Source of the DNA: an uncultured Gemmataceae bacterium
GTDB taxonomy: Bacteria; Planctomycetota; Planctomycetia; Gemmatales; Gemmataceae
Length of the DNA stretch: 64,000 nt
Direction of reading: 5' to 3'
NCBI GenBank assembly: GCA_963750165.1
Contig: CAVVPN010000003.1
Location: forward strand, 1,664,001-1,728,000
This document shows positions 5,736 through 28,400 of this stretch, in pieces. The notes under the pieces are model-generated. The model was not told where the DNA came from and did not search any database. It saw only the letters and a program-made list of their open reading frames with translations. Made by a program: the position numbers and the translations under genes. How positions within the stretch are numbered: the stretch's first letter is position 1; every line of letters starts with the position of its first letter.

Positions 5736-5810
5736 GATGACGCTTGTACGATTGTTTGATTGTTGGAACGTCCTGCCCGCCTCATTCCCCACGCCCCCCG
5801 GAGGTGCCCC

Positions 5811-6866
5811 ATGCGACCGCGCCAGGGTTTCACGCTGATCGAGCTACTGGTGGTCATCGCCATCATCGCCATCCTCATCGGCCTGCTCCTGCCGGCGGTG
5901 CAGAAGGTCCGGGAGGCGGCGGCCCGCGCCCAGTGCGAGAACAACCTCAAACAGCTCGGTCTGGCCATGCACAACTACGAGTCGGCCAACAAGAAGTTCC
6001 CGCCGTCATTCAAGGGCACCCTGGCGCCGATCAACGCCGCTTATGCGACCTATCCCGGCTACTTCTTCAGCTGGTCGGCCCTGGCGTTCCTCAACCCCTA
6101 CCTGGAACAGACCAACATCTACAACAACATGGACCTGACGCTGCCGATCTACACGCTGCCCAACTACACCATCTCGGCGGCCAATCAGTTCGCCGTCACG
6201 CAGGTGGTGCCGCTGTTCCTGTGCCCCAGCGATCAACAGCAGCCGGTCAGCAGTGCCTACGGCGTCACCAACATGGGCCCGACCAACTACGCGGTGTGCG
6301 TCGGCACCGGCACCACCAACGGCGGCGCCCCCTACGGCTCGCTGTACAACGCCGACGGCATGTTTCAGGCCCAGCAGTTCACCCGGGCGACGGACGTGCG
6401 CGACGGCCTGAGCAACACCGCCATGCTGTCCGAGAGCACCCTCGGCGAGGGCGACGAGAACACCATGGGCGCGGCCCCCAGCGGCGGCACGCTGCAAACC
6501 ACTTACCAGTATGTCGCGTTCGGCACGGCGCTGACGCCGGGCAGTTGCGCCGCGGCGACGAACTGGAACAACGCCAACCGCCGTGGTTTCATGTGGGCCT
6601 CCGGTGAGATGCGCTGTCGCCTCGTACAACCACTACCTGACGCCCAACGCACCGACGCCGGACTGCATCACCAACGACATCAACCCCGGCCCCGGGCAGT
6701 ACACGTCGATCGGCTTCCGCGGGCGCGCAGCCGGCACGCCGGCGGCGTCAACCTGGTGCTCGGCGACGGCTCGGTGCGCTTCGTGTCCAACGGCATCCAG
6801 GCCGCCACCTGGCAGGCGCTGGCCACCCGCGCCGGCGGCGACATCCTTACCAACCCGGACTTTTGA
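5811..6866 (+). CDS. DUF1559 protein (prepilin-type N-terminus, H-X9-DG C-terminus) with two compensating frameshifts at about 6618 and 6722
   Basis: [65 protein letters not shown]. The family-like segment [12 protein letters not shown] lies in the alternative frame (6583 ORF). Confidence 0.93.
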
Positions 6867-6896
6867 GCACGTGGCAAGTTTGAGGAGTCCGTCGCA

Positions 6897-8252
6897 ATGG
6901 CCGTCCTGACCGAGTCGCGTCCGCTGGTTGTCGCACTGCCCTGGCGCTGGGTGCATGTCGCCGTCGCGGCGCTGGCGATGGTGGCGACGCTGCCCGGCCG
7001 CACCCACGGCCTCGGCCTCATCACCGAACCGTTGCTGGCGGACTTCCAGCTGGGCCGCCTCGCTTACGCCGCCATCAACTTCTGGGCGACGCTCCTCGGC
7101 GCCGTCTTCTGCGTGCCCTGGGGCTGGCTGACCGACCGCCTCGGCGTCCGCGCCGTGCTCAGCGCCACGCTGCTCGGTCTTGGCGCCGTTGTCGTCGCCA
7201 TGAGTCTGCTGCCGGGCGCGGCGGAAACGACGGGGCCATCGGTGGCGGTGGCGTCGCTGCTGTTCGCGCTCGTACTGCTGACGCGCGGCCTGGGCCAGAG
7301 CGCCCTGTCGGTGGTCAGCCTGGCACTGATGGGCCGCGCCGCCGGCCGGCACTCCGGTCTGACCGTCGGCGTTTATTCGCTGCTGACCGGCCTGGGCTTC
7401 ATGGCCGCGTATGTGGCGATCCGCCAGGTGCTGTTAAATTGGGATGTCTCCTGGCGGTTACTCTGGGAGAGCATTGGCTGGGTGCTCATCGGCGTCGCCG
7501 TGCCGGTCTGGTTGGTGGTGCGGCCCACCGCCCTCGCGGTGTCGCCCACCGACCGGATCGCGGCCGACGCCGCCGGCTACACCCTCGGCGAAGCGCTGGC
7601 CACGCCCGCCTTCTGGGTCTTCGGCCTGGCCACGTCGTTTTACGGCCTGATCGCCGCAGGCATCTCGCTGTTCAACCAGAGCATCCTTGCGGAGCGCGGC
7701 TTCGACCGCGAACTGTTTCTGACCATCACCGCCCTGGCGCCGCTGGTCGGCCTGGCCAGCAACCTGGCGACCGGCGGCCTGGCGATGCGCTGGTCGTACG
7801 GCCGACTGCTGATGATCGCCATGCTGCTGCTCGCCCTGGCCCTGGCGGTCTTCCCGCTGGTGCAGACGGTGGCGCAGGTGTACGCTTACGCGGTGACGCT
7901 GGGCATCGCCGGCGGCATGGTGACGACCCTCTTCTTCGGCGTCTGGAGCCGCTACTACGGCCAGGCCCACCTCGGCAAGATCCAGGGCGCCGCCCAGATG
8001 TTGACCGTGTTCGCCTCGGCGCTCGGCCCGGTACTGCTGGCCGCCAGCCAGCACTGGACGGACTCGTACACGCCGTTGTTCCAGGGTGCCGCCGCGGTCG
8101 CCGGCTTGCTGGCGCTGGCCGCCTGGCTGACGCCGTCGCCCCGCGCCCCGATTTTCCTTCGCCTCACCCCCGACGAGGTTCCCCATGACGCCGGCCACCC
8201 TGACCCCCTTGCCACCGCCGTCCGCGGCGCGGAAGAGCGACTACGACCGTGA
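6897..8252 (+). CDS. MFS transporter
   Basis: About 12 hydrophobic segments, motif A-like GWLTDRLGVR, and YYGQAHLGKIQG. Confidence 0.9.
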   Translation: MAVLTESRPLVVALPWRWVHVAVAALAMVATLPGRTHGLGLITEPLLADFQLGRLAYAAINFWATLLGAVFCVPWGWLTDRLGVRAVLSATLLGLGAVVVAMSLLPGAAETTGPSVAVASLLFALVLLTRGLGQSALSVVSLALMGRAAGRHSGLTVGVYSLLTGLGFMAAYVAIRQVLLNWDVSWRLLWESIGWVLIGVAVPVWLVVRPTALAVSPTDRIAADAAGYTLGEALATPAFWVFGLATSFYGLIAAGISLFNQSILAERGFDRELFLTITALAPLVGLASNLATGGLAMRWSYGRLLMIAMLLLALALAVFPLVQTVAQVYAYAVTLGIAGGMVTTLFFGVWSRYYGQAHLGKIQGAAQMLTVFASALGPVLLAASQHWTDSYTPLFQGAAAVAGLLALAAWLTPSPRAPIFLRLTPDEVPHDAGHPDPLATAVRGAEERLRP

Positions 8253-8982
8253 CGGCTTCGTGATCGTCCGCGGTCTGTTCGGCGCTGACGACATCGCCGC
8301 GGCCCTGGCCGAGGCGGAGCGTCTGCTGGTCGAACGCCGCGATTTGATCTCGACCAAAAATATCCGCTGTCGCTGGCAGCCGAACGTCGTCACCGGCGCC
8401 GCCTGCGAGTTCGAGACCTTCGACCCCATCGTGGACCTCGTGCCAGTATGCCGGCGGCTGGCCCTGGACGCGCGGCTGCTGGCCGTGCTGGCGGAACTGT
8501 ACGGCGAGCCCGCGTGCCTGTTCAAGGACAAGCTCATTTACAAGCCGCCGGGCGTGAAGGGTTACGGTCTGCACCAGGACTGGATCGCCTGGCCGGGCTT
8601 TCCACGCAGCTTCCTGACGGTGCTCATGCCCTTCGACGCGGCCGGCGTGGACAACGGCTGCACGGAGGTGTTTCCCGGCTACCACACGCACGGCAGTCTG
8701 TCGGCCGAGGACGGCCAGTATCACGAGTTGCCGGCGGCCACCGTGGACGAGGCGAAGGGCGTGCCGCTGGAGCTGGAGCCAGGCGACGTGGCGATTTTCG
8801 GCGGCTTCACGCCGCACCGCTCCGCTCCGAATCGCTCGCCGCGCTGGCGACGGCAGCTGTATCTTAGCTATAACAAACTGTCGGACGGCGGCGAACAGCG
8901 GGCGAAGCACTATGATGAATTTCACCGCTGGCTGCGCGTGAAGTACGCGGAGTATAACAAGACCGACGTCTACTTCGAGTGA
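8185..8982 (+). CDS. Phytanoyl-CoA dioxygenase family Fe(II)/2-oxoglutarate dioxygenase
   Basis: YDRDGFVIVRGLF, KPPG..LHQD, NGCTEVFPG.H, LEPGDVAIF..PHRSAPNRS..RR. Confidence 0.92.
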   Translation: MTPATLTPLPPPSAARKSDYDRDGFVIVRGLFGADDIAAALAEAERLLVERRDLISTKNIRCRWQPNVVTGAACEFETFDPIVDLVPVCRRLALDARLLAVLAELYGEPACLFKDKLIYKPPGVKGYGLHQDWIAWPGFPRSFLTVLMPFDAAGVDNGCTEVFPGYHTHGSLSAEDGQYHELPAATVDEAKGVPLELEPGDVAIFGGFTPHRSAPNRSPRWRRQLYLSYNKLSDGGEQRAKHYDEFHRWLRVKYAEYNKTDVYFE

Positions 8983-9000
8983 CCACTGAGGAATTCTCCC

Positions 9001-9885
9001 ATGAACGTTGCCACGCTGCCCGTCGCACCGGCCGTCCGCTTTCACCTGTCGCTGAACGTCTCCGACCTGGCGCGGTCGATCCCATTTTACAGCACGCTGT
9101 TCGGCACCGAGCCGGCCAAGGTGCGGGCCGACTACGCCAAGTTCGAGTTGAACGACCCACCGCTGGTGCTGTCGCTGGAGCCGGCGGCCGCGGGCAAGGG
9201 CGGCTGGCTGAATCACCTCGGCTTTCGCATGCCGGACGCCGCCACGCTGGTCGCCATGCAGCGCCGCCTGGAAGAAGCGGGCATCCGCGCCCAGCGCGAG
9301 GAGGGCGTCGAGTGCTGCTACGCCCGGCAGACGAAGTTCTGGGTCACCGACCCGGACGGCGCGCTGTGGGAGATCTACACCTTTGACGGCGACATCGACC
9401 ACCGTGGCGTCGGCCAGGATCTGAAGACCGTGGCCGCCCCGGCTCCCGCCGCCAATGGCCACGCCGCGCCGGTCGCCGGCGCGTGCTCGTGGGAGCACCG
9501 CCTGGGCGAACCGGTGCCCGCCACCATCCCGCTGGCGGACAACAGCGCGGAAGAAGTGCGGTTGCGCGGCACCCTCAACCTGCCACTGGAAGAAGCGGTG
9601 AAGCGCCAGTTATTGCAGGAGGCGGCGCGCGTGCTGCGGCCGGGCGGCCGGGTGTTCGTGCATGTGCTGGTCGCGGATCGGCCGCTGGTCGCGGCGCCAC
9701 AATTGCCCGGCCCGGCGGCGGTGGTGCAGTACGTGCCGCTGGAGGCGGAGCCGATCAAACTGCTGGCGACCGCGGGGCTCAAGGAGATTCGCCTGCTGAA
9801 GTTTGGGGCCAGGCCCTGCTTCACACAGGACGGCGTGGAGATGCGCGAATTGCAGGTCGAGGGCTGGAAGCCCGCGGCAGGTTGA
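9001..9885 (+). CDS. ArsI/CadI-family VOC metalloenzyme fused to a methyltransferase-like C-terminal region
   Basis: RFHLSLNV..FYSTLFG.EPAKVRADYAKFEL.DPPL, LNHLG, ECCYARQTKFWVTDPDG..WEIY; tail IPLADNS..LLQEAARVLRPGGRVFV. Confidence 0.85.
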   Translation: MNVATLPVAPAVRFHLSLNVSDLARSIPFYSTLFGTEPAKVRADYAKFELNDPPLVLSLEPAAAGKGGWLNHLGFRMPDAATLVAMQRRLEEAGIRAQREEGVECCYARQTKFWVTDPDGALWEIYTFDGDIDHRGVGQDLKTVAAPAPAANGHAAPVAGACSWEHRLGEPVPATIPLADNSAEEVRLRGTLNLPLEEAVKRQLLQEAARVLRPGGRVFVHVLVADRPLVAAPQLPGPAAVVQYVPLEAEPIKLLATAGLKEIRLLKFGARPCFTQDGVEMRELQVEGWKPAAG

Positions 9886-9922
9886 CGTTGTCAGGGCGCC
9901 GGGGAGGGTTGCGGAGCGCTTA

Positions 9923-9983
9923 GCCGCAAGCGGCAGAAAAGATGGGTTTGAGCGCGAGCCCCTTCTTTTCTGCCGCTTGCGGC
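9923..9983. repeat. REP-like hairpin between convergent genes
   Basis: gccgcaagcggcagaaaaga ... tcttttctgccgcttgcggc; same gccgcaagcggc core as 14284-14349. Confidence 0.8.
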
Positions 9984-9992
9984 CTGGTGCGC

Positions 9993-10409
9993 TTACTGCC
10001 GCGGTTGGCCGAAGCGCTTCGGCAGAACCACGCCCCACCCAGAACCGCCGCGGCGCAGCTGGACCGCCTCCTTGAAGCGGTGCTGTTTCTTCCGAACGGT
10101 GCCAATGAAGGTGACGTGCGCGATCGCCTCGGCCCCGTGTTCCTCGCAGGTTCGCAGTTTCACCTCCTGCGGTTCAAAGCCGAGCTGCCGGCGGTAGGTC
10201 TGGGCCAGCGCCTCGAAGCGTTCCGGCGGATACTTCGCCCGGCTGTCGAGGTGCAGCGCCGCGTGAGCGCGCCGCCAGTCCTTGTGCAGCAGTCCCTCGA
10301 AGAAGTCGCGCACTGCCTGTCGCGAGCCGGTGTCCGCGGGCTCCGCCGGCGCCTGGCCGCAGCCCGCCAGCAGGGCGAGCACCAGCAGACAGCAACCGCC
10401 GCGCCGCAT
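9993..10409 (-). CDS. Putative lipoprotein
   Basis: MRRGGCCLLVLALLAGC lipobox; RBS ggaggg; 22 nt downstream of the DUF1559 gene. Confidence 0.75.
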   Translation of the reverse strand: MRRGGCCLLVLALLAGCGQAPAEPADTGSRQAVRDFFEGLLHKDWRRAHAALHLDSRAKYPPERFEALAQTYRRQLGFEPQEVKLRTCEEHGAEAIAHVTFIGTVRKKQHRFKEAVQLRRGGSGWGVVLPKRFGQPRQ

Positions 10410-10431
10410 GTCCCCTCCCTCCGCGTCGGGC

Positions 10432-11199
10432 TCAGTACGGGTAGCTCATGTCCTGGGTGAAAACAACGTGATCGGGGAACAGGTCCGCCACGGCGTCATC
10501 CCACGCCAGGCTGACGACGTGGCCGTCCAGGTACAGGTAATTGGCGGCGCCGTTGTGCCGACGGTAGGCGATCCACGGCTGAAACGTGTTGGTGCCCAGC
10601 CAGATGTCGAAGTCGTCCTGTTTGGGGTCGCCGCCCGCCGCCAGGATGCCGTCCGCGTCGCGCTCCGTGTAGGCGATGAAGTTGGACGTGCCGACCTGCT
10701 GGATGAAGCGCAGCAGCGTCCAGCGCCCGTAGCGGCGCGTCTTGTGGCTCAGCTGCGAGTTCAGCAGGTAACTGGTGCGGTTCCAGACGCCGTCGCCGTC
10801 CGGCGCGGGGTAGCGCTGCGACGGGTCCGCCGGGCAGCGGTAGATGGTTTCGCTGGGCGTGATGATGCCCTGCTTGGACAGGGCCTCGTTGGCCTCGTTG
10901 TCGCCGCCGATGAAGGGCATGAGCTTGTCTTCCCAGTAAATCTCGGCGAAGCTGTTGGCATCCGCGGTGTTGGTGAGCACGTCTGCCTCGAAGGGGTGAT
11001 GCAGGAAGAATTGCCCGTTGGTGGCGTCGTAATACTCCAGGCTCGCCATGCCGATCTGGTGCAGGTTCGACTGACACTGCGTCCGCAGCGCGGCGGCCCC
11101 CGCCTGCTGCACCGCGGGCAGCAGCAGGCCGATCAGCACGCCGATGATGGCGATGACCACGAGCAGCTCGATCAGCGTGAACGCACGGCGGGTCGGCAT
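10432..11199 (-). CDS. DUF1559 protein (prepilin-type N-terminus, H-X9-DG)
   Basis: [59 protein letters not shown] aggag. Confidence 0.93.
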
Positions 11200-11231
11200 G
11201 GCGGGTCTCCTTGAGGGCCGCGGTTCCTGGC

Positions 11232-11258
11232 GTATGACGAAATCCAAAATCGTAATAC
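11232..11258. promoter_or_regulatory. NikR operator candidate
   Basis: GTATGACG-aaatccaaaat-CGTAATAC, a near match to the GTATGA-N16-TCATAC NikR consensus (15-nt spacer here); lies between the DUF1559 gene and nikR. Confidence 0.8.
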
Positions 11259-11355
11259 TGAGGCCCAGGGTGGACGGCAAGGCACGGCCGGAAAGTTTCT
11301 GGTGGCGGCAGGGGCCGGGCGGTACAGTGGAGGGAAACCCGGGGAGGAGTTGATC

Positions 11356-11823
11356 GTGTCAGAACTGGTGCGGTTCACGGTATCGCTGGAGGCCGATCTC
11401 CTGGAGGAGTTCGACCGTTATTGCCTGGAAGGCAAGTTCCCGACGCGCAGCGAGGCGATCCGCCATGTGCTGCGCGAGACGTTGAACCAGCACGCCTGGC
11501 TGGCGGACGCTCAGGACGCGGCGGCGACGCTGACGCTGGTCTACGACCACCACCGCACCCGGTTGTCGGAGAAACTGCTGGATTTGCAGCACCGGCACGC
11601 GAACCTGGTGGTGTCCACGATGCACGTCCACCTGGACCACGACACCTGCCTGGAGGTGATCGTGCTGCGCGGCCGGGCCGTGGCGCTGCAGGAAATGGCG
11701 CTGGAACTGCGCGGCCTCAAGGGCATCCACAAGGGCCAGCTGGTGCTGGCGGCCGCATCGCCAGCGGAGGAATCAAACCACGGAACACACGGAACACACG
11801 GAAAAAAGACAGAAGAGAAATAA
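11356..11823 (+). CDS. nikR: Nickel-responsive transcriptional regulator
   Basis: RHH N-terminus VRFTVSL..LLEEFD..RSEAIR, plus [24 protein letters not shown] metal-binding motifs. Confidence 0.96.
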
Positions 11824-11885
11824 TGAGTACCTGGGTGGAAGTCCCGGGGCGTGGACTCCCGTGTTTTCCGTGTGTTCCGTGGTTT
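11775..11885. repeat. 9-mer-based inverted repeat overlapping the nikR 3' end
   Basis: aaaccacggaacacacggaacacacgg ... ccgtgttttccgtgtgttccgtggttt. Confidence 0.8.
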
Positions 11886-15518: not shown

Positions 15519-16247
15519 CTACCTTTGCGGGGCGTGCGACTTCCGCCGGACAGCACGCTGGAACAATCCGCGGACCAGCAGACACGAGCCGGCGCCGGCG
15601 AACAGGAGCAGGCTGGCCGGCTCCGGAGTTGGCGCCGCCGCCGCTTCGTTCCCCTGGACGTTGCGGAGATAGGCCGTGGTGGTGTAGCCGTCATCGCCGC
15701 CGTTCAGGATGAACTCCAGCACGGGGTCGTTCTGCTGCGCGAGATCGCCGGTGACATCCAGGGTCACGAGCGTCCAGCCATCGGCGAGGGTCATGGTGCT
15801 GACGGGCGAAGGCGAATATGGGCCGGTAAATTGCTGTCCCGTGCGATCCACGCTGAAGAACGCTGGGAAGTCCAGCGGGTCATTGGGGTCGGTGGGGGCG
15901 TAGGAACCCGAAAAGTCCGAGTTCCAGAGCGTGGCCTGGAAGCTGTCGGGCGGATCGCCCACGTTGGGTTCCCCTCCCGTCGAGGTGAGGAGGTACTCGA
16001 AGCTGATCGAGGTGGCGTCCGTCGGCAGCGTGAAGACCTGTTGGAGTTGGACCTGGGCGAAGGTGGAACTTTCCGCGAAAGTCACCACCCCGCCGCTGAC
16101 GGTGGGAGCCGCGCCGAACTCGGTCGTCCAGGCGGGGGCCAGTGGATCGGAGAAGTTGCCGTTCTGAATGAAACCCGCCCTGGCGAACGGAGCGCCAACC
16201 GCCAGTTGTGCGCACACCGCCACCAGTATGAATGCCCAGCGCCGCAT
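15519..16247 (-). CDS. PEP-CTERM sorting-domain surface protein
   Basis: Signal peptide MRRWAFILVAVCAQLAVGAPFARA; C-terminal TPEPASLLLFAGAGSCLLV..RRK. Confidence 0.9.
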   Translation of the reverse strand: MRRWAFILVAVCAQLAVGAPFARAGFIQNGNFSDPLAPAWTTEFGAAPTVSGGVVTFAESSTFAQVQLQQVFTLPTDATSISFEYLLTSTGGEPNVGDPPDSFQATLWNSDFSGSYAPTDPNDPLDFPAFFSVDRTGQQFTGPYSPSPVSTMTLADGWTLVTLDVTGDLAQQNDPVLEFILNGGDDGYTTTAYLRNVQGNEAAAAPTPEPASLLLFAGAGSCLLVRGLFQRAVRRKSHAPQR

Positions 16248-16400
16248 GACAGTCTCCGAATTAAAGAGGGTGCATTGATGAATCCGGGAATTTCCCGCAC
16301 CTATTGATACAAATACTCCAGGCATCCAGTGTGCTGGCGGAGCGCCGGACAAGCAACAACAATTTCGCTTTTTCGCCCCACCCCTTGCCTGCCCCGCTGG

Positions 16401-19400
16401 TCAACCGCCCAGCCCGATCACCCGCCGCTCGTCCCGTTCGTCGCGTGCCAGCGTCGCCAGGCCGGCGGCCAGCAGCGCGCCCGCCATCAGGTCGGCAACA
16501 GTCGCGTCCTCCTCGGTCAGCCAGTTTGCCAGGGCCTGTCCGTGCAGGTCGATGGCGGTTCGGGCGGCGGACGCTGGGGCCTCCTGGGGTGTCGGGATCA
16601 GTTCCGACGGCCCCAGGACACTCGGGGAGCCGTCCGCCGCACGGCCCACGGCCGGGACGAACCGCAGACGCGACGGCACGGGCTGGAGGGTGACCGCCGG
16701 GCCCGATTCCCACGGGAGAGCCGCCGCGGACTCGGAGCCGTTCGGCAACGGCACGCCGGCCAGCGCCGCCGGGGTGTAGGTGCCTTCCCACAACGCGGGC
16801 ATCGGAGCGGGGGGCGGCCCCAGCGGCGCCGGAGCGGACGCGGCCACGCTGTTGCCGTTCGACACCGCCGGCAGGGTGAACACCTGCGGGATGAACGCCT
16901 GCGGGATGGCCGTCTGTGGGGTAACCGTCTGCGGGGCGACCGTTGGCGGCGTGTCCACCGGGAGCGTGCCGCCGTCATCCGCCACCACGAATTCCAGCGT
17001 CATGGGATCCCAGCTGCCGCTGGACTCCGACGGTAGCGGCGCCGAGGACAGGCCGAAGACACTGCGCAGGTAGGCGTCCGAACTGTACGCCCCGCCACCC
17101 TCGCGCGGTAGCACCGCGGTGGAGAAGACGCCAGGGCCGTTGATCTGCGTGCCGAACCCGGCGGACCCCATCAGGTCCGTCGTGCCGTTCAACGCGGTCA
17201 CGTCCCACAGGCCGAAGGTGTGGCCGGCTTCGTGACTGATGGCATTGGCAATCTGCTGCGCATACTGGTCGGCGGTCTCGCCCAGGAAGCTTTCGGCCTG
17301 GCCGACCGCCGCCGCGAACACGAAGCCGATGTCCGTGTACTGGTTGCCCGGATCGACCGGCGCCCCGCCCGCGGTCAGGCTCACCGAGCCCGTGTTGAAG
17401 ACCGGGTTGGTGCCCACCAGCCAGGAACCATCGCCACCCACGTAAATCACCGTGTCGCCCGTGTGGAAGAGTGGGTCGTCCTGCCAATCGTCGTCGCGCA
17501 ACACCTGCACGGGGTACGCCGCAAACTCCGCCCGCACCTCGGTCACGATCTGCTCGATCTGCGTCTCGCGATCAACCCCGCCGAAGGCGACGTAGGCCGG
17601 GTGGGTCACCCCGGTCGCTGCCGGCACCTGCTCCACAGCCGCCGGCGCCGGCAGCGTGCCGCCGGCGAAGTCCAGGAAAATATGCGTCTGTGGCGGGGCG
17701 GGAGCAGGCGGCAGCACGCCCAGAACCTGGCTCTCGAACGTGTAGCGGACGTTGTTCGGGTTGTACAGCGAGAAGCTCCGGGCGGTGGTGGTCTCTCCCG
17801 GGTTCAGGATGCCATCGCCACCGGCCAGGGCGGTCAGGTCGAAGTACGGCGCGCCGCTCGGCAGGGTGCCGGTCGGCTGCAGGACGCTCACGGTTGAGGG
17901 TGACAGGTTGAGCCAGGACAGCCAGATCGGCCCCTGAATCGGCGTGGAGGTGTTGTTCGTCACCGTCCCGTAGAACGAAGTGTTGTGCGTGCTGCGGTTG
18001 TACTGCGTGCCGTAATAGGTGATGGTCAGCATGGACGTGACGTCCACCTGGCCGATGATGGGCAGGACATCAATGACGAAACTGCGCGTCAGCGACAGGC
18101 CGCCCTGGTCGGTGACGCGGACGTCGAGGACCAGCGTGGCCGCGTTCGCGTACAGCACCGACATGCCGAGGTTCAACTCCAGGACATTGTTCACGACCGT
18201 GAAGCGCGCGTCGTTGACCACCGAGTAAGTGAGGGTGTCGCCCACGTCCGGGTCGGTGCCCGTCAGGGTGCCGACCACAGCCCCGGCGTCCTGTTCGGGC
18301 ACGGTGTTATTGCTCAGGGTCAGGTCCGAGGGCGGGTGGTTGACGTGCAGGACCGTGATGGTGAAGTTGTCTGTCACGGATAGGGCGCCCTGGTCGGTGG
18401 CGGTGATGGCCAGCGGCACCGTCGGCTCGGTCTCGTGACTGAGGCTGACACCGCTGGCGAGTTCGAGGACGCTGCCGACCACCTGGAAGCGCGGATCGGA
18501 AACCGTGAAGGTGTGGGTGTCGCCCACGTCGGGGTCGGTCACGGTCAGGTTACCAATGACGGCGCCCGGCGCGTCCTCCAGCACCGTCGTGTTGTCCAGT
18601 GTCACATTCGTCGGCGCGTGGTTGACGTGCAGGACCGTGATGGTGAAGTTGTCTGTCACGGACAGGCCGCCCTGGTCGGTGGCGGTGATGGCCAGCGGCA
18701 CCGTTGGCTCGGTCTCGTGACTGAGGCTGACACCGCTGGCGAGTTCGAGAACGTTGCCGACCACCTGGAAGCGCGGGTCGGAAACCGTGAAGGTGTGGGT
18801 GTCGCCCACGTCGGGGTCAGTCACGGTCAGGTTGCCGATGACCGCGCCGGATGGTCCTCCAGCACCGTCGTGTTGTCCAGCGTCACATTCGTGGGCGCGT
18901 GGTTGATGTGCAGGACCGTGATGATGAAGTTGCGCGTCACGGACAGGCCGCCGGCGTCACTGGCGGTGATGGTCAGCGGCACCGTTGGCTCGGTCTCGTG
19001 ACTGAGGCTGACGCCGCTGGCCAACTCAAGGACGTTGCCGACCACCTGGAAGCGCGGATCGGAGACCGTGAAGGTTGGCGTGTAGCCCATGTCGGGGTTG
19101 ATGACGGTCAGGTTGCCGATGACGGCGCCCGGATGGTCCTCCAGCACCGTCGCGTTGTCCAGTGTCAGGTCGCTCTGTCCCAGACTGACCACGGTGATAG
19201 TCACCATGCCCGGCTGGCTGAGCAGCTGACCGTCGCTGGCCTGGTAGGTGAAGCTGTCCGTACCGCTGAAGCCCGGGTTGGGCGTGTACAGGAACGAGCC
19301 GTCGGCGTTCAGGGTGACGGTGCCGTGCGCCGGCTGAGTGGCGATCTGGGCGGTGAGGGGGTCGTCCTCGGTGTCGGTGTCGTTGGCCAGCACGCCGTTG

Positions 19401-22400
19401 GCGGCGCTCACCTGGAGCGGTTGGTCCTGGCCCGTCGTGTAGCTGTCGGGGTTGGCGAAGGGGGCGTGGTCACCGTCGGGGCCGAGCAGCTGGACGTTGG
19501 CAATGCTCACCGAACTGGCGACGGCGTCGAAGCCGAGCAGTTCCAGGTCCAGCGTCGCCTGGCTGCCGATGGCCAGGCCGGCCAGGCTCACGGTCACGAC
19601 CAGCGGCGTGCCCGGGGTGGCCGTCTGGCCGGAGGTGGCCAGGCCGTCCACGGTGACCTGTGGGCCGAAGAAGGTTTGGCCGGAGGTCTGCACGTTGAAG
19701 AAGGCGTCAGTCTGGGTCAGTCCGGTGGCGGCGCCGACCAGGGTCGTGTTGGTGGTCGGGTTGAGCAGCGCCGCCTCGAAGGCGTCGGGCGGAGCCAGCG
19801 GGCCGTTCGAGCTGAAGTTGGTGGTGACGGTGAAGCGCAGGGCGGTGGCGCCTTCGGGAACGCTGAACGTCTGGGTGAGGCTGGTGAAGACGTTCGGGTT
19901 TTCGCTGAGCACGGCCTGGGCGTTGCTGTTGACCGCGACCGTTCCCTGCGTGGTCCAGCCGAACTGCGAATCGGCGGGGTTGGCGTCGGAGAAATCGCCG
20001 TTGACCAGGTCGTCGCCGGACCAACCGCCTTGCCGCGCGGGTGCGGTGCCGATGCCGAGGAGGCTCGGGACCAGGTTGCTGGTGACGCTGGCGTCCTGGC
20101 GCACGGTGTTGAGGATCTGCACGTCCAGCGGCGAGGGTAAACGGCGGACGCCCGGCTCCAGGGTGAGGCTCATCAGGTCATCGGGATACAGGGACGGGTC
20201 GAGGTCGTCCGCCTGTGGGGCTGCCAGGTTGGCGGAGTAGCCCTTGCCGACGAACATCATGGAGCCGGCGACAATGCCGACGTGGGCGGCGTAGCCGGGA
20301 ATCTGCGGGTCGATGCCGAGCACGTGGCCGACCTCGTGCAGCAGGACGGTGTCCAGGTCGTACTTGCCCGCGGCGGGCGAGCCGGGGAGTGCCTGGAAGG
20401 CGTCGGGGCTGAGCTGCCGGCTAAACGCGGAGTTGTCCAGCGGCGTGGGATCGACGTACCAGCCAACGCCCGCGGCGTCCGGGCTCAGGGTGATGGTGGC
20501 GGCCGTGGGCAGGCCGTCCGGGCCGAGCCCGTCAATGCGAGTCTCGCCCAGTTCGCCTGCAGGCAGTTCCGCAAACGTAACGTTGAACTGAGCGTTGGCG
20601 AGGCCGCCGCTTGGTATGTTCCAGGCCGCCAGGGCTGCGTTCAGGCTGAACGTCTGGAGGCTGTCCAACGATGGATCTTCACCCTGCAAACCGATTGCTG
20701 TGCCCAATTGAGGCGCCGGAGGCGGGACAGGGTACGCGGTGATCAAATTCCCTCGGGCGTCGGTGTAAATCTGGATCCAACTGGTTTGCTGCCCGCCATG
20801 CTTCAAGGAAGTCAATCCGACAATTTGTTGGGTGTCCACGAGGCGGCTGTAAGACGGATTGAGTGCTCCTCCTCCCTGCTGGACCGCCCGCACAGGGGAC
20901 TGAACCACCCCTCTGCTGGTGAGAACTTGTTCGAGTTGACCGACCGAGATGGTGAAGGTCGAGTCATGTTGCGTCGGGGCGGGCCGGAAGTGATTCTGCA
21001 CAAGGTGCACCAGGCCAGCCGTGGTGGATCTGCCATTCCCCGCCCCCTTGGGCGAAAAGCGGGTGGCGAAGTTGGGGACGTTGATGCGGTTTCGTACCAC
21101 GCCAGGAATCGGGGGTTGACTTCCACTCCCGCTTCCCCCGCCGGGATTGCCACCACCGGTCGAGCCACCACCGCCGCTACCGCCTGTGCCTGGTGGACCC
21201 GATGTCGAGTTGCCGTTGGCGGCGTTGGCCCGGCGAGAGGCCGCAATCCCAGCGGCACCGAGCGGGGCAAACGTTTCAACCATGCCACCGATGCCGGCGA
21301 CGCCCATGCGAATTTGCGGATCATCCGTGAACAACCCGGAAACCTGATATCCGAGACTTGAGCCGATCGTTTTATTGACATCGACGGCCGCGTTCACTCC
21401 GTTCTCCAATTGCTGCTGCGCGTAATTCTCTTGCGTGGTGGTCTGGCCATTGCCGCCCATGACCTGAAGACTACCCTGGTTCTGCAGCGGCGTCATGTGA
21501 CAGTTGGGGTCATCGCGCTTACACGAGGTGACCACGTCAATACCGGCCTCAATCCGCCAGTATTGCGCCTGCTGTTCCTGGATTTTCCTCTGCTGGGCCG
21601 CGAGGGCGTCCTGGACCCTGGGGTCGTAGTACCAGAAGGAACTGCTGAAATCGACCTCCTTCAGCAGCTTTTGCAAGGTTTCAGGGGGCAGTTGTTTCAA
21701 CTGATTGACTGGGTCGAACGGCGAAGCGCTCGCGCCGACATCACTCACGGTAGCCCCCCACTCGCCGGGCCGGTAGGACTTGTCGTGCACGGTCAGGCCG
21801 TCGGTCCCGGTGTCCGTCTTCGACTCCTTGACGACGCCGCTCTTCCGCGGCGGTCCGTGGACAGTCACCTCCTCCGGCACATCGTCCGCCGGAGTGTTCG
21901 TGTTAGTGGCTGGCGGCGTTGCCGGGGTTCCCAGGATGCAGCCGCCGGGGCCGCAGATGGCACTCGACGGGGATACCGTCGGCAAGTTGGGCGGAGGCGG
22001 GGGCGGGGGGGGCGGCCCTTGCGCCGCGGGCGCCTGCTGCTCTCCCGTCGGGTCGGTGTAACTCAGCGGGTTCGCCGAGACGTACAGGTAGCGGTTGAGG
22101 GTGATCGGGGCAGTCTCCGCCCCGAGGAAATCGTCCTGGGTGATGAACGACCCGACGGACGGGTCGTAGTACCGCGCCCCGAAATAGTCCAGCCCCGTCC
22201 CCGGGTCGGCGCGTTGGCCGGTGAACTGCACTGGGTTGTTCGACGCGCCGTAGGACGCCAGCACGTTGCCCCAGGGGTCGTACTGGAAGCCCTGGATCAC
22301 GCCTGCGGGGCCGTACAACTCCGAGGTGCTGCCCAGCGCGTCCACGAAGTAAAACTGTTCGACGGGGACCGAGCCGCCGGAGAGCGGGCTCAGCATCGAC

Positions 22401-25400
22401 ACGAGTTGCACGCCGTAGTTGTACTGAATCTGTGTCTGGCCGCTGCCGCTGTATTCGAGCAGCAGGCCGGACGGCCCATACAGATAACGCGTCTCCCCCG
22501 TGGAGTCGATCAGTTTGACCCGCATCCCGGTGTAGTCGTAGTCGAACGTGACCGGGTTGCCGGAAGCGTCCGTGGTCTGCGTCAGCTCGTCCAGCACGTT
22601 GTAGGTGTACGCCGTGGTGCTCGTCGTGCTGACAACGGTCACGACCGGGTTGCCGTTGCCGTTAATCGTGGTGTTGACCTGGCCGACGATCTTGCCGGTG
22701 CGGTTGCCGTTGAGGTCGTACGTGTAGGCGATGCTCTGCGTGGGGGCCATGTAGTCGGTGACGCTCGCCAGTTCGTTGAGCCGGTCGTAGGCGTAGCTCA
22801 GGTCCACCGCCTGGGACGGGTTCGCCGGGTCGGTGCCCGTTTCGCTCTTGCGGTTGCCGTCGTTGTCATATGTGTAGTGCAGTGCCGCCCCGTTGGCATA
22901 AAAGACGTCGGTCAGCCGGTCGAGATGGTCGTAGGAGTATGACGTTGTCTGCGGCGCGCCGCCGTTCAGCCACTGGTGGGACTCGGTCTGCGACGTGCGG
23001 TCGCTGTCGGCGTCGTAGACGTAGGTGAAGCTAGAAATGACAACCGGGCTCGGGCTCGTGGTGTGATTGACCAGCTGGACCAACCGGCCCGCGGGGTCGT
23101 AGCCGCTGTCGGCGGCGGTCCCGTCCGGGTACGCCACCGTGGCGACCAGGCTGTCCTTGTAGTAGGTGTAGGTCGTCGTGCCGGCGCCCGTGTAGACGTG
23201 CCAGATGCGGTTACGGGCGTCGTAGTCGTAGGTGGTCGTGCCGGCGCCCGGGGGCGGTGTCATGGGCGGCAGCGGCTGGTTCGGGCCGGGGTCCTCCACG
23301 CTCTTGAGGTTGCCCTGCGCGTCGTAGGTGTACCTCACGTGGGTGTAGACGTCGTTGGGTCCCAGGTTGTCGTCCCGGGTCTGTTCGGTCACGCGGTCCA
23401 GGGCGTCGTAGACGTAGACGTGCTGCTCGTAGATCGGCGTGGCGGCGTTCCCGTCCGCCCCGGCCTTGGTTTCGTTGACCTGCACGATGTTGTCGTCCGC
23501 GTCGTACTGGTAGACGATGGCCGACGGTTGGAACGGGACGTTCGGGCTGGCGAATTGCGAGTACGCTACCGTCAACAGCCGGTCCCGGTAGTCGTACGTC
23601 ATCGCCGTGACCTGGTTCTTGGGGTCCGTCACCAGCGTCTGGTTGCCGTTGGCGTCGTAGCCGTAATGCCAGTGAATCGCCACGCTCGTCGGGGGGGTGC
23701 CGGGGTACGGCGCGTACGGCGCGGGCCGCGCCGGCGTGGGGCTCAGGGTGCCGGGGGTCAGGTACTGCAAGGTATCCGTGAGCCGGTTCAGCGCGTCGTA
23801 GTAGAACGTGACCAGGTTGCCGTTGGCGTCCTGCTGGGCGATCTTGTTGCGGTTGCCGTCGTAGCGGTAGTAGGTGATGCCTCCGCCGCTCTGCGTCTCG
23901 TTCACGGACAGGAGCGAGCCCAGTTCGTCGTAGGTGTAGGAGGTCGTGTACCCCCGGGGGTCCTTCATGCTGAGGACGTCGTTGTTGGCGTCGTAGGTGT
24001 AAAAGGTCGTGTTGCCCGCGCCGTCGGTCTCGGTCATCATCCGGTGCAGCACGTCGTAGGTGTAGTAGGCGTCGAAATACCCGGCCCGGGGCGGGTTGCT
24101 GGCGTCGGTCGGGAACGACTGCGACGGCCCGGCGTGGGCGCGCGGGCCCTGCACCGACACCAGGTCGCCGACTGAGTCGTACGTGTAGGTGGTCGTGCCG
24201 GCCACGCTGGGGTCGTTGGCCCCCTCCGTCATGCTGATCTTGCGGTTCGCCCCGTCGTAGGCGTAGGTCGTCTCGTTATTGTCGGCGTCGAAGGACGCGG
24301 TCACGTTGTCGTCGCCGTCGTACTGCATCCGCTCCAGCGTCACCGTGCTGGTGCCGTAGCCGGACGACAGTTCGCTGTTCTGCACGCTCAGCGAAATCTC
24401 CCGGCCCAGCGAGTCGTTCTGGTGGATGGTGAGGATCGGCGCGCCGTTCACGATCCGCGGCCCCACGTCAATCACCTGGTTCTGGGCGTCGTGGTACTCC
24501 TCCAGGGTCGTGGTGATTGCGCCGCCGGTGGTGCCGTCCTCGTCAGTTTCGATCAGGCGGTTGTCGGCGTCGTACTGGTACAGGGTCACGTTGTGGTTCG
24601 CGTCGGTCTGGCTGCGCAGGTTGACGCCGTCGTAGACGGAAACGATGGTGGGGTGCACGAACGTCGTCGCTTGCGTGCCGGGGTCGGTAACGGGGACGCC
24701 GGGTTCCGTCACCAGCACCGGCCGGCCCACCGCGTCGAACTGCGTGACCGTGGCGTTGCCGTCGGCGTCCGTCGTGGTGACCTGGTTGGCGGGGTCGTTG
24801 TAGCTGGTGGCCGACAGCGTGAGCTGCTGGCCGCCGTTGCTGAACTGCTCGTACAGCGTCTGGTTGAGCACACGGTTCAGGTTGTCGTAGGTGGTCGTGG
24901 TAACGGTACCGCGCTTGTCCACTTGTTTGACCACGTCGTCGTTGCCGTTGTAGAAGACCGCCTCCGCCGGATTCAATTCGTCCTTGGACGTGAGCATCCG
25001 GCCCAGGCCGTCGTAGGTGTTGACGACGAAGGTGCCGGACGGGTCCGTGATCTTGACGGCGTCACCGTCCTGGTCGTACTGGGTGGTGGTGGTGAGGCCC
25101 AGGCCGCCGACGTCCACGGTGGCGCTGTGGACGCGGTCCAGGCCGTCCAGCACCGTCTCGGTCTTGCCCGAGACGTGCTCGGGGTCGGCCGAGTTGCCGC
25201 GCGGGTCGGTCACGATGACGGTGTTCTGGGCGTCGAGGCTGTAGTCGTAGGTCGTCACGTAGGTCACTTGCTGGGCGCCGCCGGTCGGGTCGCCGAGGTA
25301 CACGGTCTCATCCACTTCCCCGGGTCGATCCAGACCGTCGATCTTGGCCGACGGGGTGGTGATCGTGAGAGTGGTCACCTTGGCGCCGGTCGGGTTCGAC

Positions 25401-28400
25401 TCGTCCAGGGGGCTCTTGTGCGTCTCCAGGATGACGTTGCCGTTGGGGTCGTACTGGTAATCGACCTCGTTGCCCACCGGGTCGGTCTGGGTCAGCAGTC
25501 GGTTGGCGGCGTCGTAGGTGTACTTCGTGACGTGGTCGTCGGCGTCGCTCTGGCTGAGCGTGTTGCCGACCCGGTCGTAGGTCGTCAACTGGTCCGGCGG
25601 CACGGTGACGTACGAGCCGGACAGCGGCAGGTGCACGTCCGTCACGCGGAACAACCAGTCGTACTTGTACGTCGTGGTGTTGCTGTGCAGGTCGGTCTCG
25701 TACTGCTTGTTGCCGACCAGGTCGTAGTGGGCCTGCATGGTCGGTTCGTTGGTCGGGATCGACGGGCCGCCCACGATCACGGTTTCGATCAATCGGTTCA
25801 GGTCGTCGTAGGTGAATTGCTGGTGGATCGGCGCGCTGCCCGGGCCGTCGCGCAGGTCGTACTGGTCGGTGACGTTGTCGTCCTCGTCGTACCTGTACGT
25901 GGTGGAGATGGTGGTGGTCGAATTGTCCGCCTGGAGCACGCCCGGCTCGGTCTGCGTGATCAGGCGGTTGGCGGCGTCGTAGGCGTAATCGGTGACCTGG
26001 CCCATGCCGTTGATCGTCGCGCTGACCTGGCCGCCGGGCAGGTAGAAGGTGATCGTCTCCTCCGCCCACGCCCGGCCGGCGTCCGGGCCGGTCAGCGGGT
26101 GCAGCCCGTCCTGCGGCAGCACGAAGTTGTAAGCCTGGGCGTTCTGGTCGTCGAAATGGACCTCGCGCACCTCGCGGTCCAGGCCGTCGTACGCGTAATC
26201 GACGTGGTGGCCGAATGTGTCCTTCGTCGAGGTGAGCCGGCTGCGGGCGTCGAACGTCTGCGTCGTGGTGATCCCCTGGCTGCCCGAGGTCTGGGCGAAG
26301 GTCTGGGTGGCGTTGCCGTAGGCGTCGTACTGGTACGTGGTCACGAAGCCCTTGGGGTCGGTCTCCTGCGTCAGGTCGCCGGGGCCGACGCCGTTGGCGT
26401 AGGTCGTGCCGGTGTAATATGCGTACTTCGTCACGTCGCCGACGGCGTCGATGGTGGCCAGCAGGTTGCCGTTCAGGTGACCGGGGGTGGGCACGGAGGC
26501 GCCGCCCTGCAACGCCGGCAGCGCTGGCGGCGGGCCGCCCGTGCCGTCGGTCAGGCCGAACGCGGTGTCGTCGTAGACGTAGAAGGTGGTGTGGCCTTCG
26601 CCGTCGGTCGCGCTGGTCTTCTGGCTGAACAGCGGGTCGTAGGTGTAGGAGGTGGTCACGCTGCTCACCTGCCCCCCGGCGGCGGTGTAGACCGGGTCGT
26701 AGATCGACCCGGTGGGGGCGTGGATCGTCTGCGAAATCACGTTGCCGAGCACGTCGTACTTGTAATCGGTCTCCCGGAGTGTCGGGTCCGTCATGGACAC
26801 CAGTTCCACGTCGAGCTTGCCGTCCGCGCGGACGGGCACGGCGGCGGCGTTGGGCTGGTCCATGTTCCAGACCATGGTCGTCTTGGCGGCGCCCGCGTTG
26901 CCGTCCCCGTCCGGGGCGTCGATCTCAATGGCGGCCCCGTAGCTGTCGAGCACGTAGGTGGTCGCCGGGATGCCGGGTCGCGGGTCGGTCACCATGCGTG
27001 TGTTGGCCGTGCTCGATTGCACGCTGAAGTTGTAGCTGAACTGCGTCACGGAAATCCCGGAGCCGCCGGTGGCCGTGGAGGCACCGCCTGGCTCGTCCAC
27101 TTCCTTGACGACCTCGTAGAACGGCACGCCGAAGAAGGGGTTCAGGTTACTGTCCACGTACGAGGCGAACTGGTGGCCGTCGATCAGCGGGTTGCCGCTG
27201 CTGGTGCCGTCGAGGTGGTCGCTCACCTGGAAGTAGGTGTAGGTGGTCGTGTGGTCCTTGTAGTCCGGCGCCAGGCTGCCGTCCGCGTTGAAGCCGTTCG
27301 GCTCGATGTAACTGGTCAGGTTGTGGCCGGTGGGGCCGTTGCCGGGCGTGTAGGTGTAGGCCTGTTTCTGCAGGATCGGGCCGCCCTTGCCGTCCCGGCG
27401 CACCACGCTGGTGAGGTTGCCGGCCACCTCCGGCGGCGGGTCGGTCGGCGCCGCCCCGGGCGGCGGCTCGTCGTAGTTGTACTGAATGTCCAGGCCGCCC
27501 AGGGTGCCGTCGTCGGACGGGTCGGGGTCGTACCCCGTGATCTCCGTGATGCGGTAGGCGTTGTAAATGTACTGGTAGCTGAACAGGAGCGCCCGGCCCG
27601 ACGAGTCCGTCACCGCCTTCACCAGGGTGAGGTCCTGGTTGGCGGCGAAGGCGTCCTGGAAGGGCTGCGCCAGACTGCTGGCGCCGAGGTCGTCCTTGCT
27701 GTAGTACAGGGTGATCTTGTTGCCGTTGGCGTCCTCGATGTAGGCGAGCTGGTACACGGTGGTGCCGTCGTTGACGTCGGCCGGCAGCTGGAGCGGGCGC
27801 AGCACGAAGTGGTAGCGGACGTCCGCCGTGGTGAAGAAGTCGAAACTCGCCTGCCCCGCGACCACGTCCCGGGCCAGTGAGGAGTGGTAGCCGACCTGCG
27901 GGTAGAAGAACTGGGCGCCGGCCGGCAGTCCGTACTGCTGGGCGCGGGCGGCGTTCACGGCGGTCAGCACCGGGTCCAGGGCGCCGACGGTCGTGAAGGT
28001 GTTGCCGCTGCCGTCGCCGCCGACGATGGTGTACTTGCCGCTGCCGTTGTCCACCAGGGTAACGTTGTAGTTGTCGGTCCAGCCGGCACCGAGCGGCCCG
28101 GGGCTGGTGTCGCCAGAACTGGAGTAGCTGCGCGTGAAGGTCAGGTCCAGGCCGCGGCCGGGGACGGTGACGTCCGTGCTGGACATGGTCAGATGGCCGT
28201 CCCAGATGTCCACGCCCTTGACGATGGTGTGCGCGATGGGGTAGGACTGGTCCTCCTCCACGTCATGGTCAAGCTCGGCGGTCTGCGTGGCCGCGGCGTT
28301 GGTGTCGGTGACCGCGGTGACGGTGAGCGTGTAACTGCCTGGCTGGGACACGGCCGGGACGTTGGACAGGTCCGTGGTGTAGATGCCCGGGTCCAGCTGG

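Follow-up and report, generated by a model that had tools for sequence, protein, structure and literature searches.

We analysed a 64,000-nt stretch of DNA (hereafter the window; positions 1,664,001 to 1,728,000 of contig CAVVPN010000003.1, GenBank assembly GCA_963750165.1) from an uncultured Gemmataceae bacterium of the Planctomycetota, in which nikR, encoding a nickel-responsive repressor, lies divergent from a gene pair encoding a DUF1559 type IV pilin-like protein and a lipoprotein. NikR very probably binds a 27-bp box upstream of this pair and represses it as an operon. For the DUF1559 protein we favor, with a probability of roughly 0.55, a role as an extracytoplasmic, pilin-anchored catcher of nickel or a nickel chelate that feeds an energy-coupling factor (ECF) uptake system. 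At the level of sequence, these proposals are supported by the box and its position, the co-occurrence of the box with nikR, the predicted pilin-like fold, conserved residues, a canonical transporter, and nickel enzymes. The three genes and the palindrome are all located where an earlier reading of the letters alone (the sequence-only reading) had put them. Below, G000 denotes the window's own genome and C3, C4, C11, and C12 its contigs; other G numbers denote genomes, and L numbers denote loci.

Features of the locus (window coordinates):
11356..11823, plus strand: nikR, nickel-responsive ribbon-helix-helix (RHH) repressor (NF003381; PF08753 + PF01402)
11232..11258, palindromic: NikR-type operator, 27 bp, consensus GTATTAC-N13-GTAATAC (matrix score 33.8 bits)
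11280-11275, minus strand: TTGCCG, possible -35 hexamer of the DUF1559 operon, with a -10 expected within the operator
11199-10432, minus strand: DUF1559 type IV pilin-like gene, clade A, 255 aa (N_methyl, PF07596, TIGR04294)
10990..11010, minus strand: FFLHHPF motif (His67, His68; residues 64-70; alignments A1 and A2)
10409-9993, minus strand: lipoprotein gene (LAGC lipobox), 138 aa, second in the operon (NTF2/SnoaL-like model)

The NikR box and its co-occurrence with nikR

The box is the palindrome GTATGACG-aaatccaaaat-CGTAATAC at 11232-11258. It is separated by 32 bases from the ATG of the DUF1559 gene and by 97 from the GTG of nikR; the sequence-only reading had its position right but counted 33 nt to the DUF1559 start. 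A 27-bp matrix, seeded with GTATTA-N15-TAATAC from upstream regions and refined with the window locus left out, gave this site 33.8 bits, and the runner-up in the 64-kb window scored 4.5. In approximate dinucleotide shuffles, the top score was 12.0 over 2000 shuffles of intergenic sequence and 16.1 over 30 shuffles of the window. Because 33.8 bits lies well above both maxima, the palindrome is far beyond chance.

The family consensus of the homologous boxes is GTATTAC-N13-GTAATAC, and every matrix-scored homologous site has identical 27-bp spacing. In the available text of PMC545781, NikR boxes are inverted repeats 27-28 bp long, in which 7-bp arms flank a spacer of 13 or 14 bp, the sequences being GTGTTAC-N13/14-GTAACAC in delta-proteobacteria and GTATGAT-N13/14-ATCATAC in enterobacteria. 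Compared with these, the arms of the window family are intermediate between enterobacterial GTATGAT and delta-proteobacterial GTGTTAC; the strict E. coli consensus recovers few of the homologous sites, and the planctomycete family consensus differs from it. Since published boxes span 27-28 bp, the 15-nt spacer needs no correction, and the suspicion that a base is missing from it was rejected, the 27-bp spacing being the norm among homologous sites as well.

On the minus strand, the hexamer TTGCCG that had been pointed out at 11280-11275 is real and lies 17 nt before a TATTAC inside the box, giving the promoter candidate TTGCCG-N17-TATTAC. A strict sigma-70 scan of the window passed no promoter, this candidate included. 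TTG occurs at -22 to -18 relative to the box 26 times in 42 homologous sites, which would place the -10 inside the box, and a sigma-70 promoter over the box of the DUF1559 operon is plausible.

The nikR product matched NF003381 of NCBIfam with 154 bits (cut-off, 105; E 2e-45) and consists of an N-terminal RHH domain (PF01402) and a C-terminal nickel-binding domain (PF08753). It gave the single match in G000 and is thus the sole copy found in the genome. Aligned to solved NikR chains, it retains YDHH and HVH-x5-C (HxH-x5-C); the high-affinity nickel ligands of NikR, in identity and position, we take to be three histidines and one cysteine. The C-terminal tail of the protein is encoded by one arm of a short inverted repeat (window 11779-11885), and another hairpin resembling repetitive extragenic palindromic (REP) elements stands at the end of the lipoprotein gene (window 9921-9985).

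To follow the box across genomes, we collected loci of the DUF1559 clade to which the window gene belongs (clade A). The genome scan gave at least 78 loci, and the counts of box and nikR rest on the loci listed. A box was called when the matrix exceeded 10 bits within 300 nt upstream; 74 loci other than the window's own were scored, and four more were too short upstream. The box was present upstream of 42 of the 74, while control stretches within genes reached at most 4.6 bits. One locus with both box and gene, L096, belongs to a strain in culture, Singulisphaera acidiphila DSM 18658. A PF08753 search covered the genomes of 69 of these loci; of the other five, three were second loci in genomes already represented and two had been reached by way of nikR. 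The box was found in 39 of 42 nikR-bearing genomes versus 1 of 27 nikR-less ones, many of the genomes being incomplete metagenome-assembled genomes. Held-out loci (29 class-wide loci, minus 9 training duplicates and 1 too short, leaving 19) gave the same picture, with a box at 13/13 with nikR and 1/6 without. On a quick tree of 85 proteins, from which four partial ones had been dropped, the states of box and nikR agreed in 80. In 10,000 runs of simulated independent evolution, the maximum agreement was 72 and the observed 80 was reached 0 times; a Pagel-type test of box versus nikR gave a likelihood ratio of 46.6 with 4 degrees of freedom. The matrix was also applied outside the training set, to 28 nikR loci in distant Planctomycetota, and exceeded 12 bits at 22 of them, in many cases directly 5' of nikR; some of these hits look AT-rich, and they were scored without shuffle control.

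Most genomes carry the box at the DUF1559 gene and nikR at another place, with no box near nikR. nikR is within 6 of 76 homologous loci (adjacent in four), and the lipoprotein gene is in 18 of 70. On these counts, the conserved unit is the box plus the DUF1559 gene, so that of the synteny proposed earlier this part held, but the linkage of nikR and of the lipoprotein gene did not. Four nikR-less Limnoglobus-type loci scored -0.7, 6.2, 18.1, and 20.3 bits, their boxes apparently decayed. Being conserved, overlapping the predicted -10 region, and tracking the presence of nikR, the box very probably serves NikR as the operator of the DUF1559 operon, as had been suggested. A single contig (L043/L044) has two copies of the DUF1559-lipoprotein pair in inverted orientation, which may reflect duplication during assembly; it was counted once. 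At L167 and L168 (G488, G492), a second, sequence-divergent nikR adjoins another DUF1559 gene with no match to the present box; this pair may have its own operator.

Across G000, the matrix exceeded 12 bits at 23 positions, of which 9 are inside long inverted repeats (at least 15 of 20 flank bases complementary) and three more resemble one-armed repeat remnants. The window box lacks hairpin arms, with 8 of 20 flank bases complementary. Box-like 27-mers in REP-like loops with differing arms were seen in G000 at C11:1082484, C4:1157939-1190744, C12:315510, C3:3368553, and C3:2668831-2673233, and G442 has REP-like hairpins with such loops at L212, L251, L252, L259, and L260. These loops could be coincidence, a source of new operators, or NikR decoys.

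The DUF1559 protein and the nickel genes of its genome

The DUF1559 protein (255 aa) is barely above the cut-off of PF07596 (23.4 versus 23.3 bits), and its prepilin N-terminus (TIGR02532) and H-X9-DG motif (TIGR04294) are also above cut-off. It has a class III signal peptide (A|FTLIE) with an invariant glutamate (Glu5) and a helix predicted at residues 9-59. Clade A is tight: the best 120 of 1758 database matches are 69-80% identical, self aside. The FFLHHPF motif, noticed earlier as lying early in the exported part, spans residues 64-70, and its His67-His68 pair is invariant in 115/115 and 64/64 aligned homologues (A1 and A2, respectively). In both alignments, His152, Glu86, Asp91, Asp195, Asp196, and Asp198 are likewise invariant, as are the aromatic residues Tyr88, Trp89, Trp200, and Trp209, whereas the invariant Cys42, Cys122, Asp125, His215, Asp225, and His227 are shared family-wide. 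Among 46 pilin-like genes found by motif in G000, the window gene is the one with a box (next best, 5.4 bits) and the one with the HH pair. Clade A is conserved at 50-80% identity; same-genome paralogues match other boxed clades at ca. 40% at best, self aside.

The structure model (predicted local distance difference test [pLDDT] score, 86) shows an N-terminal helix of 50 residues followed by an alpha/beta head. Its top structural matches are type IV pilins and are weak (Z at most 4.9, root-mean-square deviation 3.7 A, 121 aligned); Foldseek against the PDB gave no match at E 0.001, and atlas searches gave nothing beyond unnamed pilin-like or hypothetical clusters. Like type IV pilins and pseudopilins of type II secretion systems (PilA4 6xxd, CofA 9iuf, ComP 5hz7), the protein has a class III signal peptide, Glu5, and a long alpha-1, and its head may be pilin-like; the fold match is weak, the head is larger than theirs, and there are no adjacent assembly genes, assembly genes elsewhere lying outside the search. 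In ComP, a pilin head can serve as a ligand receptor. With other DUF1559/SBP_bac_10 (PF07596) proteins it shares the prepilin N-terminus, the CPxD and H-X9-DG motifs, and a small lipoprotein downstream; it differs from them in that clade A is short, borderline in Pfam score, and unusually conserved, with an invariant HH plus acidic/aromatic set, and in being the only boxed member in its own genome.

The lipoprotein gene starts 22 nt past the DUF1559 stop on the same strand. The model of its product (pLDDT 86) gave NTF2-like matches in Foldseek (E 3e-4 to 1e-3). In a Pfam/NCBIfam domain scan, neither this protein nor the DUF1559 protein matched the permease or binding-protein families of NikABCDE, NiCoT, NikMNQO, or HupE. 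Binding proteins of the SBP_bac_6/8 type were found near 6 clade A loci. Two families of Cys/His-rich small proteins also occur near clade A, one at L041, L049, L053, L068, L073, L105, and L106 and the other at L082, L083, L086, and L097; one member of each was scanned and matched nothing in Pfam or NCBIfam.

The sequence-only reading had taken the operon for a possible non-canonical system standing in for the known nickel transporters. This idea was not borne out. On contig C11 of G000 is a nikK(DUF4198)-nikM(CbiM)-nikL operon with a box of 27.1 bits at C11:137098, 49 nt upstream, the clearest other gene-linked site in the genome, and cbiQ is located elsewhere without a box. A canonical ECF nickel system is therefore present outside the window and, because its nikKML operon is boxed, the window DUF1559 protein is, on genomic grounds, an accessory component and not a replacement transporter. 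At this locus (L169, C11:134600-137125), nikL is in two frames, by frameshift or assembly error, and is followed by an IS200-like/REP-associated tyrosine transposase (RAYT) gene. HupE was not found in G000, and there is a weak NicO-family match at C3:410050. The nickel users of the genome include two NiFe hydrogenase large subunits, LarA-family genes, and a TIGR00300 ornithine cyclodeaminase, whose cofactor is a nickel-pincer according to the accessible portion of PMC13524815; no box above 0 bits was found near the G000 cbiQ, larA, and hydrogenase loci. Urease was present in 1 of 5 genomes tested. LarA homologues were found in 10 of 10 tested, with or without nikR, which indicates that some nickel demand remains in all of them.

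Other members of the regulon were sought with a degenerate pattern in 37 genomes; the sites come from among the matches listed, with 20 further regions picked by eye, and form a selected sample and not a census. This sample held 28 distinct sites above 16 bits, 6 in repeats and 7 before clade A. Of the other 15 non-repeat boxes, 12 precede 11 other DUF1559 genes, and the remaining 3 are linked to a NikL-like gene, a small peptide, and no assigned gene. A DUF4198/NikK gene comes after three of the other boxed DUF1559 genes, and DUF3526 ATP-binding cassette (ABC) permeases come after one. These genes are spread over several unrelated clades and have no common HH motif. The small peptide gene, at L243:4064 (G527), encodes a hydrophobic peptide of ca. 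33 aa behind a NikR box.

The system resembles the NikR regulons of E. coli (nikABCDE) and delta-proteobacteria (nik(MN)QO or nikKMLQO), as far as they are covered in the text seen of PMC545781, in its NikR-family repressor and its 27-bp inverted repeat, whose 7-bp arms are 13 bp apart. The box near a candidate promoter and the boxed nikK-nikM-nikL in the same genome are further points of likeness. It is unlike them in that the planctomycete genes most consistently boxed are DUF1559 prepilin-type genes and not permeases. Regulator and box are those of an ordinary NikR system, but the target class is not.

In the mechanism that we propose, nickel-loaded NikR would occupy the 27-bp box, which lies over the predicted -10 region, and repress the DUF1559-lipoprotein operon, which would be expressed when nickel is scarce. 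The DUF1559 protein would be a prepilin-type subunit, either anchored in the membrane or part of a (pseudo)pilus; its head would lie outside the cytoplasm, where the invariant His, Asp, Glu, and aromatic residues may bind Ni(II) or a nickel chelate. It would hand nickel to the co-regulated NikK/NikL/NikM ECF uptake system, and this would supply [NiFe]-hydrogenases and nickel-pincer enzymes.

Several observations weigh against this proposal. A stricter test of box versus nikR, by independent pairs on well-supported branches, could use 3 pairs and did not reach significance (p 0.25), and box-like sequence also occupies the loops of REP-like hairpins. In four other genomes, a clear box was lacking within 1.5 kb of the cbiM loci (highest score, 10.9 bits), so co-regulation of the ECF system is not universal. 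Among 221 sampled Planctomycetia, clade A was present in 33, and NiFe hydrogenase occurred in 16/33 of these versus 79/188 of the others (p 0.57). Within families, clade A was not enriched with nikR (6/11 versus 22/35; 17/18 versus 33/35), and it persists in 27 nikR-less genomes. Finally, at ten clade A loci in nikR-less genomes, falling in two separate clades of the tree, an RNA leader replaces the box.

An RNA leader in relatives lacking nikR

The leader is a hairpin of ca. 80 nt that starts directly after a sigma-70-like promoter, has the core RAUGGCGG...CCGUAG, and ends in the U-run of a terminator. Each of the ten leader/clade A loci either went into the building of model R1 or R2 or surfaced in the R1 search.

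Leader loci:
L068:7868-7955, L075, L079, L087, L102, L105-L107, L035:7662-7744, L316-L322, L330-L346

Among the 98 sources scanned, the leader was absent from all box-bearing loci, and it was not found in G000. All five exact metagenome matches precede a prepilin-type gene, three of which are readable as clade A. In 150 genomes of the order, a covariance model gave 18 strong hits, 17 before speY and 1 before clade A; one speY was confirmed by NF002699 and the others were assigned by similarity. In 150 phylum-wide genomes, three weak 34-36 nt hairpin hits outside Planctomycetia were seen and not counted. SpeY makes a bis-guanidino precursor of homospermidine, as stated in the available part of PMC13625781. 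Four pairs of the leader show two-sided changes, the structure being derived from the same alignment, and no Rfam family matched at its gathering score.

The leader is a candidate riboswitch by its sequence and position. Like the terminator-embedded HMP-PP (hydroxymethylpyrimidine pyrophosphate) and guanidine-IV riboswitches, it has a conserved internal loop in a hairpin, a U-run before the gene, and a start just after a sigma-70-like promoter; unlike them, it has no Rfam match and is linked to speY and clade A. Our literature search found no riboswitch tied to homospermidine or deoxyhypusine synthase; supplementary RNA-motif catalogues, which were outside the search, could list the leader. 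It would suit the nickel reading of clade A if it senses a divalent metal and a polyamine reading if it senses a polyamine.

Five genomes with the leader on clade A were tested; they have no speY orthologue (best, 31-39%) and all keep LarA, and two of them were checked and have another homospermidine-synthesis homologue above cut-off. The idea that uptake replaces synthesis in such genomes is weakened by these two homologues. In G000, a redoxin-speY-TIGR00300 operon (L367, C4:1289680-1292696) has TIGR00300 directly behind speY; four other genomes have a GSU2086-family gene after speY, identified by domain scan in one and by similarity in the rest. In G420 (L188, L316), a peptide gene similar to that of G527 stands behind the leader and ahead of DUF1559, a second case of box and leader on like genes.

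Alternative functions and what the finding means

The strongest alternative, which we consider unlikely, is that the gene is under NikR control while its product captures a polyamine or guanidino-amine, namely homospermidine, its bis-guanidino precursor, or agmatine. In NikR lineages, it would be induced when nickel-dependent arginine/polyamine metabolism falters; in nikR-less ones, the signal would be a shortage sensed by a polyamine-responsive leader. The leader stands before clade A in the 10 nikR-less loci of two tree clades and before speY in 17/18 strong hits, speY of G000 is directly followed by the nickel-pincer ornithine cyclodeaminase, and the SBP_bac_6/8-type proteins near 6 loci fit as well. 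Polyamine pockets, such as that of PotD, are rich in acids and aromatics, as is the invariant set E86, Y88, W89, D91, D195, D196, D198, W200, and W209. However, the invariant His pair plus His152 would be apt ligands for a transition metal, NikK accompanies other boxed DUF1559 clades, LarA is kept in all five leader genomes, and the leader's ligand could itself be a divalent metal. Although those genomes lack a speY orthologue, the two that were checked keep another homospermidine-synthesis homologue, so that uptake would not simply stand in for synthesis.

Less likely still is a NikR-regulated protein that captures no nickel, namely a nickel-responsive surface or pilus component or a general divalent-cation binder in a nickel-sparing or envelope-remodelling response. 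This would fit the missing association of clade A with hydrogenase, the plain pilin-like fold with no solved metal-binding relative, and the several unrelated boxed DUF1559 clades without a shared HH motif; NikR is also predicted on non-transport genes elsewhere, such as Fe-only hydrogenase (PMC545781, available text). On the other side, boxed DUF1559 genes are repeatedly linked to NikK and DUF3526 permeases, and clade A, with its 50-80% identity and its invariant potential ligands, is much more tightly conserved than same-genome paralogues. That the palindrome is no working operator of the operon, being either a REP-like repeat relic (9/23 genome hits above 12 bits are in long inverted repeats, and G442 has similar hairpins) or a site for nikR autoregulation alone (it lies between divergent genes, 97 nt off the nikR start), is very improbable, since the window site has no arms (8/20), most genomes keep the box with the DUF1559 gene and have nikR elsewhere without a box nearby, and the box is lost where nikR is lost or looks decayed, as in the Limnoglobus-type loci.

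Two further regions of the window were annotated. At 5805-9885 on the plus strand, a second DUF1559 gene, ca. 40% identical to the boxed clade of L246/L247 and itself without a box, is followed by genes for a major facilitator superfamily transporter, a PhyH dioxygenase, and an ArsI/CadI-methyltransferase fusion, and this array converges on the NikR operon. On the minus strand, 18827-30394 and 15519-16352 contain a YD/RHS-repeat protein of 3855 aa whose C-terminal region is variable; it lies upstream of cadherin-like repeats and a PEP-CTERM-like protein, and the ends are frameshifted.

In the parts of the literature available to us, DUF1559 is treated either as a large family of planctomycetes whose function is unknown or as a putative solute-binding family, with no tested function, and Planctopirus limnophila is reported to have 68 paralogues, two of them essential (PMC10632474, available part). 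Our search, which had most subscription journals and supplements outside its reach, found nothing joining NikR with planctomycete pilin-like genes, and a search on H-X9-DG gave nothing relevant. Returning to nickel capture by clade A, we tentatively suggest a wider possibility, that DUF1559 prepilin-type proteins form a planctomycete solute-capture system in which pilin heads act as receptors wired to the regulator of their ligand. Several clades may have been recruited by NikR for nickel, and clade A may have been swapped between NikR and an undescribed terminator-embedded riboswitch that also governs homospermidine synthesis, which would link nickel and polyamine homeostasis. It is the regulator swap in nikR-less relatives that brought this possible new riboswitch of the homospermidine pathway to light. 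DUF1559, one of the largest gene families of planctomycetes, has no demonstrated function; clade A now gains a putative regulator, a predicted inducing condition, and candidate ligand residues, which makes it testable whether pilin-like proteins capture solutes.

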